Shown here: one piece after another, positions 60,971 to 64,000 of the stretch
Position numbering within the stretch: position 1 is the stretch's first letter
How the letters are laid out: each line of letters starts with the position of its first letter
Assembly: GCF_051903065.1 (NCBI RefSeq)
Contig: NZ_CP178438.1
Length of the DNA: 64,000 nucleotides
Strand: one strand, 5' to 3'
DNA from: Escherichia coli
GTDB lineage: Bacteria; Pseudomonadota; Gammaproteobacteria; Enterobacterales; Enterobacteriaceae
Notes under the pieces: model-generated
Databases searched by the model: none
Told to the model about the DNA's origin: nothing
What the model saw: only the letters and a program-made list of their open reading frames with translations
Translations under genes and position numbers: made by a program

Positions 60971-61666
60971 GTGAGCGAAATTAAAGACGTTATTGTTCAG
61001 GGGTTGTGGAAAAACAACTCTGCGCTGGTCCAGTTGCTCGGCCTTTGTCCTCTGTTGGCGGTCACGTCCACTGCCACTAACGCTCTGGGTTTAGGACTTG
61101 CGACTACGCTGGTACTGACGCTGACCAACCTGACCATTTCGACGCTGCGTCACTGGACGCCAGCCGAGATCCGCATTCCCATTTACGTGATGATCATCGC
61201 CTCGGTGGTCAGCGCTGTACAGATGCTGATCAACGCCTACGCCTTTGGCCTGTATCAATCATTAGGGATTTTTATTCCGCTGATTGTCACTAACTGTATC
61301 GTTGTGGGCCGCGCTGAAGCCTTCGCCGCCAAAAAAGGTCCGGCGCTTTCGGCACTGGACGGCTTTTCAATTGGTATGGGCGCAACCTGCGCTATGTTCG
61401 TGCTGGGTTCACTACGCGAAATTATCGGCAATGGCACATTGTTTGACGGTGCAGATGCGCTGTTAGGTAGCTGGGCAAAAGTATTACGCGTGGAGATTTT
61501 CCACACCGACTCCCCTTTCCTGCTGGCGATGCTGCCACCAGGTGCATTTATTGGCCTGGGACTGATGCTGGCAGGAAAATACCTGATTGATGAAAGAATG
61601 AAAAAGCGCCGTACTGAAGCAGCTGCCGAACGTGCATTGCCAAACGGTGAAACAGGGAATGTCTGA
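60971..61666 (+). CDS. rsxE: Rnf/Rsx subunit E
   Basis: 231 aa; paralogous to rsxA. Confidence 0.95.
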
Positions 61667-62301
61667 TGAACAAAGCAAAACGCCTGGAGATCCTCACTCG
61701 CCTGCGTGAGAACAATCCTCATCCCACCACCGAGCTTAATTTCAGTTCGCCTTTTGAATTGCTGATTGCCGTACTGCTTTCCGCTCAGGCGACCGATGTC
61801 AGTGTTAATAAGGCGACGGCGAAACTCTACCCGGTGGCGAATACGCCTGCAACGATGCTTGAACTGGGCGTTGAAGGGGTGAAAACCTATATCAAAACGA
61901 TTGGGCTTTATAACAGCAAAGCAGAAAATATCATCAAAACCTGCCGTATCTTACTGGAGCAGCATAATGGCGAGGTTCCGGAAGATCGTGCTGCGCTTGA
62001 AGCCCTGCCCGGCGTAGGTCGTAAAACAGCCAACGTCGTATTAAACACTGCATTCGGCTGGCCGACTATTGCTGTCGACACGCACATTTTCCGCGTTTGT
62101 AATCGTACTCAATTTGCGCTGGGGAAAAACGTCGAACAGGTAGAAGAAAAGCTACTGAAAGTGGTTCCGGCAGAGTTTAAAGTCGACTGCCACCATTGGT
62201 TGATCCTGCACGGGCGTTATACCTGCATTGCCCGCAAGCCCCGCTGTCGCTCTTGTATTATTGAAGATCTTTGTGAATACAAAGAGAAAGTTGACATCTG
62301 A
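61666..62301 (+). CDS. nth: endonuclease III (DNA glycosylase/AP lyase, 4Fe-4S)
   Basis: 211 aa; HhH-GPD (LPGVGRKTANVVL) and C-terminal CX6CX2CX5C; 1-nt overlap with the rsxE stop. Confidence 0.95.
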   Translation: MNKAKRLEILTRLRENNPHPTTELNFSSPFELLIAVLLSAQATDVSVNKATAKLYPVANTPATMLELGVEGVKTYIKTIGLYNSKAENIIKTCRILLEQHNGEVPEDRAALEALPGVGRKTANVVLNTAFGWPTIAVDTHIFRVCNRTQFALGKNVEQVEEKLLKVVPAEFKVDCHHWLILHGRYTCIARKPRCRSCIIEDLCEYKEKVDI

Positions 62302-62307
62302 AGAAAA

Positions 62308-62340
62308 GGGGTAACACCGATTACCCCATTGATAACCTTT
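62308..62340 (+). terminator. stem-loop downstream of nth
   Basis: ggggtaa-caccga-ttacccc followed by a T-rich stretch. Confidence 0.45.
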
Positions 62341-62911
62341 CTTTATCCTCTTTTAAAACATCTTTTTAACGTCAATGATGCCATTGCTTAGCGTTATCAT
62401 CAGGTAATCCGTTTGCGGATAACCAAAAATGCAGGTTAATTGTTTTTTTAATAGCGAAATTTTCTATTCATTCGTGATCAAGATCACGATGCTGTGGCAA
62501 TGTAAAAACATTGCAAGAATCAGGTTAAAATCATTTAAATTTACACACGCAACAAATATTGACCTACAAAACATTACACTGGCTATTTTTCAGAAACTGG
62601 ACTATCTCACTAGGAAAAACGCTAAATAGCAGAACATATCGCCGTCAAGCCATCATCCCCCTCTCAATGCAGTGAAAAAATCTGCCGTTACGTTTTTTGA
62701 AAAATTTAACGCTGGATAACATTTCCCGGAATGGTTGAATTCCCCGCCTCAGTTATATGTAACAGATTATTACAAAGGACTTGTCTGAAAGTGCAAGATA
62801 GTGAACATTACCTGCCGTTTCCCCTCCCACTATAACAATTGCGCGTATGTTTTTTAGACATAACGCGAGAAAGCACCCCCGTTAATATGGGATGTAAAAA
62901 AAGAGGTAAAA

Positions 62912-64000
62912 GTGTCCACTGCAAACCAAAAACCAACTGAAAGCGTCAGTTTGAACGCTTTCAAACAACCGAAGGCGTTCTATCTCATCTTCTCGATTGA
63001 GTTATGGGAACGTTTTGGTTATTACGGCCTACAAGGAATTATGGCTGTTTACCTGGTTAAACAACTGGGTATGTCTGAAGCGGATTCAATCACCCTTTTC
63101 TCTTCCTTTAGTGCCCTGGTTTATGGTCTGGTCGCTATCGGCGGCTGGTTAGGTGACAAGGTACTGGGTACTAAACGCGTAATTATGCTTGGCGCTGTTG
63201 TGCTGGCGATTGGTTATGCTCTGGTTGCCTGGTCTGGTCACGACGCCGGTATCGTTTATATGGGTATGGCGGCTATTGCGGTCGGTAACGGCCTGTTTAA
63301 GGCTAACCCGTCTTCTCTGCTTTCTACATGCTATGAGAAAAACGACCCGCGTCTGGACGGTGCATTCACCATGTACTACATGTCCGTCAACATCGGCTCT
63401 TTCTTCTCTATGATTGCTACGCCGTGGCTGGCCGCGAAATACGGCTGGAGCGTTGCGTTTGCATTGAGCGTTGTAGGCCTGCTGATCACTATCGTTAACT
63501 TCGCCTTCTGCCAACGCTGGGTTAAACAGTACGGTTCAAAACCAGACTTCGAGCCTATCAACTACCGTAACCTGCTGCTGACCATTATTGGTGTTGTGGC
63601 ACTGATCGCTATCGCCACCTGGCTGCTGCACAATCAGGAAGTTGCGCGTATGGCGCTGGGCGTTGTTGCCTTTGGTATCGTGGTTATCTTCGGTAAAGAA
63701 GCCTTCGCGATGAAAGGTGCTGCGCGTCGTAAAATGATCGTTGCCTTCATCCTGATGCTCGAAGCCATTATCTTCTTCGTGCTGTACAGCCAGATGCCAA
63801 CGTCACTGAACTTCTTTGCGATTCGTAACGTTGAACACACCATTCTGGGCCTGGCCGTAGAACCTGAGCAGTATCAGGCACTGAACCCGTTCTGGATCAT
63901 CATTGGTAGCCCGATTCTGGCCGCTATCTATAACAAGATGGGCGATACCCTGCCGATGCCAACCAAGTTTGCAATCGGTATGGTGATGTGTTCTGGTGCG
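62912..64000 (+). CDS. dtpA: POT/PTR2-family di/tripeptide:H+ symporter (5' part; continues beyond the window)
   Basis: GTG start at 62912: [48 protein letters not shown]… (POT signature). No stop before the window end. Confidence 0.9.

Follow-up and report, generated by a model that had tools for sequence, protein, structure and literature searches.

The nth–dtpA Interval of Escherichia coli: A Known OmpR-Dependent Regulatory Region with Conserved Upstream Blocks and a Structured Leader

Introduction

In the ompF promoter region, OmpR occupies the sites F1–F3 at -100 to -40 and a distal site F4 at about -380 to -350, and repression takes place by looping. The tppB gene of Salmonella is leucine-responsive. 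In Escherichia coli, the corresponding peptide-transporter gene dtpA (tppB, ydgR) is a classical OmpR-activated gene (Gibson et al. 1987 and Goh, Siino & Igo 2004, as cited in later studies), and ChIP-chip as well as regulon studies also connect OmpR with dtpA/tppB. The activity of a PdtpA-lacZ fusion (-201 to +15) was lost in an ompR deletion and repressed under OmpR over-production in an ompF-like manner. In the curated-regulation table, dtpA is listed with pOmpR as an activator and with Leu-Lrp and GadX as repressors, and YdcI binds upstream of the gene. At the RNA level, targeting of tppB by GcvB R1 has been verified in Salmonella, and the E. coli RIL-seq data also contain this mRNA. The gap between nth and ydgR also serves as a standard 'safe' landing pad for the recombinase-mediated integration of promoter/reporter libraries in MG1655.

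In this work, the nth–dtpA interval was analysed in a window of E. coli DNA (the whole stretch under analysis, 64,000 nucleotides long). The E. coli/Salmonella tppB OmpR-dependent promoter is the same locus, as the OmpR site, the activation and the ChIP peaks coincide with positions 62759–62778, and the proximal part of the promoter as published shows no difference from the window. The likeness to ompF comprises the location of OmpR beside a weak -35 element, activation at low and repression at high OmpR, and a conserved distal element about 330–385 bp upstream at a fixed distance. Unlike ompF and ompC, dtpA has one contiguous 20-bp OmpR site, not three, with the next TAAC tandem 42 bp upstream; unlike in ompF, the distal element resembles CRP and Lrp sites rather than an OmpR box, and no conserved IHF consensus is present in between. 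The Lrp-array promoters (ilvIH, gltBDF and dadAX) share with dtpA a long AT-rich upstream region and several consensus-like sites at fixed spacing, although the Lrp sites of dtpA are putative ones, assigned by a degenerate consensus. With the GcvB-repressed mRNAs (dppA, oppA, gltI and tppB), the dtpA leader and codons 3–9 have in common C/A-rich single-stranded stretches.

It is highly probable (roughly 85%) that the whole interval is the cis-regulatory region of dtpA and that it consists of four parts. Overall, it is a known regulatory region to which modest new detail is added here. The residual novelty is descriptive: the fixed geometry of a 375-bp module, the conserved CRP-type site in its distal part, the Lrp-like sites and the covariation of a leader hairpin appear to be new.

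Results

Locus and Composition of the Interval

An 801-bp query across the interval matched 5423 of 5426 complete E. coli genomes with 95–100% identity, which identified the window as E. coli DNA. Each of these genomes contained one match, flanked by genes annotated nth and dtpA; the interval was thus single-copy, and it was intact in 5422 of the 5423 matching genomes. In the window, nth occupies positions 61666–62301 and dtpA begins with a GTG codon at 62912, leaving a gap of 610 bp. The window coordinates were converted to NC_000913.3 by adding 1,649,857, and the MG1655 counterpart (1712159–1712768), equal in length, is devoid of any annotated feature. The interval of the window is identical to that of strain DSM 103246 and differs from K-12 at 6 positions. 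The GC content across the 610 bp is 0.32–0.43 in comparison with about 0.50 in the flanking genes. An earlier note on this DNA, based on the sequence of the window, had described an AT-rich non-coding interval of 610 bp followed by a GTG-initiated gene. The coordinates, the GC content and the MG1655 counterpart agree with the former, and the GTG start codon of dtpA proved to be invariant, together with AGAGG 5 nt upstream, in 44 aligned species.

Orthologous intervals were collected by an Nth-protein scan with one genome per species, which gave 80 loci. In 46 of them, dtpA was located about 520–720 bp after nth.

OmpR-Dependent Proximal Promoter

The following elements describe the dtpA-proximal part of the interval:

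62653–62673, no strand assigned: GadX ChIP-exo peak (repressor), 1710534–1710554 in U00096.2, at -151 (PMC4918353 supplement)
62759–62778, + strand: OmpR binding site with tandem half-sites TGTAACAGAT and TATTACAAAG, -57 to -38, published ChIP-exo peak
62781–62816, + strand: sigma-70 promoter with -35 TTGTCT (62781–62786), 17-bp spacer and -10 AACATT (62804–62809), transcription start site (TSS) at about 62814–62817

The TGTAACA motif TGTAACAGATTATTACAAAG (62759–62778) had been proposed in the earlier note as an OmpR-family site. The OmpR consensus used for comparison consists of two tandem 10-bp half-sites with a (T/A)(A/T)AC(A) core, and AAC and TAC were found 10 bp apart within 62759–62778. 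Coordinates in U00096.2 were converted with an offset of 1976 bp at dtpA, which we take from the old dtpA coordinate and which is self-consistent with the centre of the motif. In the OmpR ChIP-exo supplement, the dtpA peak spans 1710621–1710680 (U00096.2) and is classed as an activator site with the centre at -46.5. In window coordinates, this peak corresponds to 62740–62799, with its centre at most 1 bp from the flagged motif, and the motif is thus the published OmpR site. Counted from a TSS at 62816, the site lies at -57 to -38 and abuts the weak -35 element TTGTCT. Its mean identity across species was 87%, and the promoter sequence GATAGTGAACATTAC was nearly invariant across the aligned species.

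The TSS at about 62816 was deduced from the offsets in two ChIP-exo tables (OmpR and GadX), which differ by 2 nt. Therefore, the 5′UTR is 96 nt long, not several hundred nucleotides, and the long 5′UTR suggested in the earlier note was not borne out. The same note had named a single TSS near 62912 together with a lack of independent transcripts or footprints as evidence against a complex region. The first of these was partly found, as the ChIP-exo sites are referenced to a TSS about 96 nt before the start codon, and the second was not, since published OmpR, GadX and YdcI footprints fall inside the interval. Both the suspected OmpR site and the reading of the interval as a multi-site regulatory region were right and are already in the literature, the OmpR control of the proximal dtpA promoter being known since 1987/2004.

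In a published long-term stationary-phase evolution study, an A-to-T change at 'nth/dtpA +503/-108' recurred in 3 cultures, and the dtpA mRNA level was increased about 23-fold. This position corresponds to 62804 in the window, the first base of the -10 element, which is changed from AACATT to TACATT. The strength with which this -10 mutation was selected under starvation shows that the expression of the transporter is relevant to fitness.

Conserved Blocks and Their Spacing

The aligned intervals consist of conserved blocks with 61–87% identity, which alternate with spacers of 29–42% identity. The segments, with mean identities to the window, are as follows:

62302–62431: nth-proximal spacer, 32% mean identity, 103–138 bp in length
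62308–62327, no strand assigned: GC-rich hairpin GGGGTAACACCGATTACCCC immediately following the nth stop codon, -12.5 kcal/mol, z -1.7, terminator-like on the - strand
62432–62449, + strand: block 1, CAGGTTAAT(T/C)GTTTTTTT, 79% mean identity in 43 other species, -384 to -367 from the TSS
62452–62467, no strand assigned: block 2a, TAGCGAAATTTTCTAT, best Lrp-consensus match in the window
62456–62488: block 2, palindrome included, 67% mean identity
62473–62488, no strand assigned: CRP-type palindrome CGTGATCAAGATCACG, centre at 62480.5, -335.5 from the TSS
62510–62565: spacer, 29% mean identity
62566–62612, + strand: block 3, ACAAAACATTACACTG ... CTATCTCACT, 61% mean identity against 29% in the adjacent spacer, Lrp-like match at 62567–62581
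62625–62643, + strand: block 4, TAGCAGAACATATCGCCG, 81% mean identity, -191 to -173, Lrp-like matches in 15 species
62670–62685, + strand: block 5, AGTGAAAAAATCTG, 73% identity over 62670–62681, Lrp-like matches in 18 species
62702–62727, + strand: block 6, AAAATTTAACGCTGGATAACATTTCC, 86% mean identity over 62702–62725
62754–62778: OmpR-site segment, 87% mean identity
62780–62830: -35 to +15 segment, 78% mean identity

The distances between these elements were the following:

block 1 to palindrome: 48 bp in 39 of 44 species
palindrome to block 3: 120–121 bp in 39 of 44 species
block 3 to block 4: 26 bp in 40 of 44 species
block 4 to block 5: 44 bp in 44 of 44 species
block 5 to block 6: 35 bp in 43 of 44 species
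block 6 to OmpR site: 52 bp in 44 of 44 species
OmpR site to -10: 45 bp in 44 of 44 species

Seven blocks extending from 62432 to the promoter thus keep a spacing nearly free of insertions and deletions in 44 species, an arrangement more rigid than reported before, and this appears to be new. Unlike the block spacing, the leader segments vary in length by several nucleotides between species. Neither a module reaching out to -384 nor a covarying leader hairpin was described in the literature searched, which did not extend to Goh et al. 2004.

The position of the upstream blocks was followed in loci with an enlarged nth–dtpA gap. In three Kosakonia-type loci (L014, L018 and L023), the gap is about 1170 bp long, and a gene for a hydrophobic membrane protein of about 141 aa (MNFHPWLNALHI...) is located on the - strand right after nth. 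The fourth enlarged locus (L050) has a gap of about 1060 bp, in which the ORF was not detected. In all four loci, the distance to the dtpA start is nearly constant for block 6 and for the OmpR site; block 4 precedes the start codon by 284 bp in L014, as in the window, and by 283 bp in L018 and L050. Two elements could not be found in this set, namely block 4 in L023 and the GATAGTGAACATTA -10 region in L050. Between the inserted gene and dtpA, about 470 bp before the latter, lies a block-1-like sequence (GGTTATTCC followed by T7). Because the blocks keep their place beside dtpA when a gene is inserted after nth, the upstream module belongs to dtpA. In L014, L018 and L023, a different CRP-like palindrome was noticed at about -575.

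These data also bear on the possibility that the distal blocks 1–2 (62432–62490) are part of nth, forming either its true intrinsic terminator or an element of its 3′UTR. Block 1 ends in a T7 run that is often preceded by a weak TAACC...GGTTA stem, and the hairpin beside the nth stop codon has a poor U-tract on the + strand, both of which would fit such a role. However, cross-species folding revealed no consistent terminator stem before block 1, the block-1-like sequence stays with dtpA when the two genes are separated by an insertion, and block 1 is held 48 bp from the downstream palindrome in 39 of 44 species. Block 1 was rejected as the nth terminator on the first two of these grounds, and the assignment of blocks 1–2 to nth is considered rather improbable. 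The hairpin at 62308–62327 is the probable terminator of the rsx-nth operon, and the DNA from 62432 onwards is read here as the upstream region of dtpA.

Coding Potential and Small RNAs

The earlier note had also seen room in the interval for an unannotated sRNA or a small ORF. The ORF in question is the following:

62429–62629, + strand: 66-aa ORF, rejected as a gene, intact in 2 of 46 orthologous intervals, start codon kept in 4 and frame kept in 9

An independent gene could be encoded by this ORF or by a - strand RNA ending at 62327–62308. Room for it is available, the ORF exists, and the nth-proximal hairpin is terminator-like on the - strand, where it is accompanied by a T-run. The comparative data point the other way. 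Both intervals with an intact ORF are from E. coli, and the ORF overlaps conserved DNA blocks without showing codon-like conservation. Apart from those over the promoter/OmpR DNA, no ORF of 10 codons or more was conserved on either strand of the 46 intervals. No + strand terminator was found in the interval, and the - strand hairpin lies in its least conserved segment; the region from the CRP-type site to this hairpin, in which a candidate - strand unit would be located, has 32% identity and a variable length. No - strand promoter is correctly placed relative to the CRP-type site, and the interval in MG1655 carries no annotation. The Rfam search gave no match above noise even at E ≤ 10, and no conserved transcript-like unit was detected. 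The comparative data thus already largely refute a hidden gene, which is very improbable, and neither an sRNA nor a small protein gene is supported in what remains, in our reading, regulatory DNA of dtpA.

Candidate Protein-Binding Sites in the Blocks

The palindrome CGTGATCAAGATCACG of the window (CGTGATC-AA-GATCACG) differs from TGTGA-N6-TCACA by 2 outer mismatches. At the aligned position, this pattern was found with no more than 2 core mismatches in 31 of 45 orthologous intervals (0–1 mismatches in 24 of 45), and a CRP-type site is absent in about a third of species. Conserved half-sites around a variable centre, as seen here, are the signature of a dimer of the CRP family. The occurrence of a single match to the pattern in 64 kb is not itself significant. 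An FNR site was also considered for the palindrome and rejected as the fit was poorer than that for CRP. The CRP genomic-SELEX paper (Shimada 2011) mentions tppB once. The centre of the palindrome at -335.5 does not correspond to a canonical CRP activating distance (-41.5, -61.5 or -71.5), and no conserved promoter was found at such a distance from it on either strand.

The last observation is relevant to the possible existence of a second dtpA promoter near 62515–62540, which would depend on the CRP-type site and produce a 5′UTR of about 370–400 nt, with blocks 3–6 acting partly as RNA. Such a promoter would rescue the idea of a long UTR; a conserved CRP-type palindrome is present, and TAAAAT at 62526–62531 resembles a -10 element in Escherichia and Citrobacter. 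Against this, the distance of the CRP centre from the candidate -10 elements gives about -35 or -57.5 instead of the usual -41.5 or -61.5, and the -10-like elements are shared by close relatives only; no convincing additional promoter emerged when conserved hexamers of the -10-like form TAnnnT were sought. Blocks 3–6 are conserved as sequence with fixed spacing and display no paired covariation by eye, and the published studies reference their sites to one TSS. A consensus promoter scan of the interval gave 0 sites and was uninformative, because the real, activator-dependent promoter was also missed. A second promoter is therefore regarded as unlikely, and the blocks are treated below as DNA sites upstream of the single OmpR-dependent promoter.

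The Lrp SELEX consensus YAGHAWATTWTDCTR has its sole 1-mismatch match in 64 kb at 62452–62466. Further matches with at most 3 mismatches start at 62567, 62670 and 62697. The Lrp-like matches coincide with conserved blocks in 27 (block 2a, of 45 species), 11, 15, 18 and 13 species. The consensus is weak, being degenerate and AT-rich, so these matches are suggestive only, and several of the blocks may represent Lrp-type sites.

In block 6, two TAAC half-sites were found 10 bp apart; they are in phase with the OmpR half-sites and precede them by 42 bp, or four helical turns. Block 6 is thus a candidate for a second OmpR-type site at -105/-95. The 31 bp between block 6 and the OmpR-site region (62728–62758) contain no OmpR-like half-sites and are 42% conserved. 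No IHF or Fis-core consensus was conserved in the aligned intervals. ArcA-box-like matches (at most 4 mismatches in 15) start at 62502 and 62717 and occur in 12–13 species; in the supplement of the ArcA paper, tppB shows a 2.5-fold expression change and is absent from the binding-site tables. Positional binding data comprise OmpR and GadX, and the proteins named for the distal blocks are putative assignments made from the sequence.

Structure of the 96-nt Leader

The transcribed part of the interval upstream of dtpA is the following:

62816–62911, + strand: structured 5′UTR of 96 nt, with CCUC at 62823–62826, hairpin 1 at 62842–62867, hairpin 2 at 62873–62895 and the Shine–Dalgarno (SD) GAGG at 62903–62906

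Single-sequence folds of the leaders from 44 species repeatedly showed the pairing of CCUC with the SD GAGG, hairpin 1, and hairpin 2 upstream of the A-rich SD region. A covariance model (R1) built from nine leader sequences matched 46 loci, each of them once and directly upstream of dtpA; Pantoea, Mixta and Pectobacterium are represented among them. In the R1 alignment, 90% of cells were paired, in comparison with 29–46% when the partners were slid by 1–3 columns. Compensatory changes were detected in 15 of 22 leader pairs, and none of 500 shuffles reached the observed values. All 10 pairs of hairpin 1 and some pairs of hairpin 2 displayed such changes. As the leader alignment was fitted to the R1 model, the pairing is somewhat inflated; the covariation of hairpin 1 is visible by eye in the unfitted alignment. 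RNAalifold applied to a plain MAFFT alignment recovered 3 pairs only, and structure-aware realignment with the covariance model was needed.

The CCUC:GAGG helix was predicted in most species, with 95% of cells paired and C-to-U changes only. It shows no covariation because both strands are invariant, and the alignment thus speaks neither for nor against it. According to the predicted folds, the invariant CCUC could mask the SD sequence. The Rfam search of 61600–63300 at a permissive threshold (E ≤ 10) returned noise only and no riboswitch or leader family; the dtpA leader is thus an unclassified structured 5′UTR.

The best pairing with GcvB R1 was found at 62919–62938 (dtpA codons 3–9) with -17.6 kcal/mol, an energy which 27% of random segments reached as well. 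The GcvB site in codons 3–9 was rejected as a prediction of the windowed scan, since it was not significant in relation to the background, and the whole-molecule duplex was meaningless. The segment 62919–62938 itself is C/A-rich (CUGCAAACCAAAAACCAACU) and is invariant at ACTGCAAAC across species.

Proposed Organisation of the Region

The interval can be divided into four parts. The first (62302–62431) is the 3′ flank of nth with a probable terminator hairpin, variable in sequence and length. The second (62432–62780) forms a module of about 350 bp with seven blocks, whose mutual distances are near-invariant in Enterobacteriaceae and Serratia. The blocks are most likely protein-binding sites, presumably several of the Lrp type, one of the CRP type at -335, the published GadX site and an OmpR-type repeat at about -100, and they may assemble into a stereospecific nucleoprotein complex that modulates the promoter. 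The third part is the weak sigma-70 promoter TTGTCT-17-AACATT, activated by an OmpR dimer at -57 to -38. The fourth is the 96-nt leader with its two hairpins and a 5′ CCUC able to mask the SD sequence; the published repression by GcvB/Hfq probably acts on this leader. What we infer from these comparisons is which proteins bind the distal blocks, that they form a higher-order complex, and that the SD sequence is masked.

A more specific model, which we put forward tentatively and regard as possible rather than probable, is that the approximately 375 bp from 62432 to the -10 element act as a fixed-geometry, enhanceosome-like complex. In such a complex, the DNA would be wrapped or looped around Lrp together with CRP, OmpR and GadX, leucine, cAMP, envelope and acid signals would be integrated, and the covarying, SD-masking leader would act along with it.

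The invariant spacing of the blocks over about 375 bp in 44 species offers a testable case of geometry-constrained promoter architecture in bacteria. The covarying leader hairpin and the possible SD mask, absent from Rfam, provide a structural frame for the known GcvB control. Most of the region used as the nth–ydgR landing pad is under strong constraint in sequence and spacing, and the DNA upstream of dtpA is not neutral. If the fixed-geometry complex does exist, this 'safe' landing pad may cut through the module.

Repeats and Strain-Specific Features

The earlier note had pointed to several direct and near-palindromic repeats. Two perfect palindromes with 7-bp arms were indeed found in the interval, CGTGATC-AA-GATCACG (62473–62488) and GCAATGT-AAAA-ACATTGC (62497–62514), and the pentamer AACAT was in excess; the other repeats are short and mostly at the level expected by chance for AT-rich DNA. 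On the + strand of the interval, AACAT was observed 6 times against 1.4 expected (P ~0.0025), in comparison with a single copy on the - strand. The copies are located as follows:

62357, 62507, 62570, 62633, 62718 and 62804, + strand: AACAT, pentamer count

Three copies lie exactly 63 bp apart, and three lie 43 bp apart if AACAG at 62761 is included. Conservation across genera was observed for the last three copies only.

The palindrome GCAATGT-AAAA-ACATTGC occurs only in the E. coli lineage to which the window belongs. At this position, other genera carry ATGTTAAAT preceded by GATAAC, forming a TAAC/GTTA inverted repeat. A strain labelled E. coli SCPM-O-B-8794 (L003) represents a separate species cluster bearing the same species label. 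Compared over 62470–62560, its spacer downstream of the CRP-type palindrome is strongly divergent from that of the window, and the CGTGA...TCACG of the window is replaced by a perfect CRP core, TGTGATCAATCTCACA. The sole interrupted interval among the 5423 genomes belongs to E. coli GZ2408C (L084, NZ_CM172481.1), in which the IS66-family element ISCro1 (tnpA-tnpB-transposase) is inserted at about 62514, between the CRP-type palindrome and block 3. At the other end of nth, its start codon overlaps the stop codon of rsxE (ATGA, window 61663–61669), which is consistent with translational coupling inside the rsx-nth operon.
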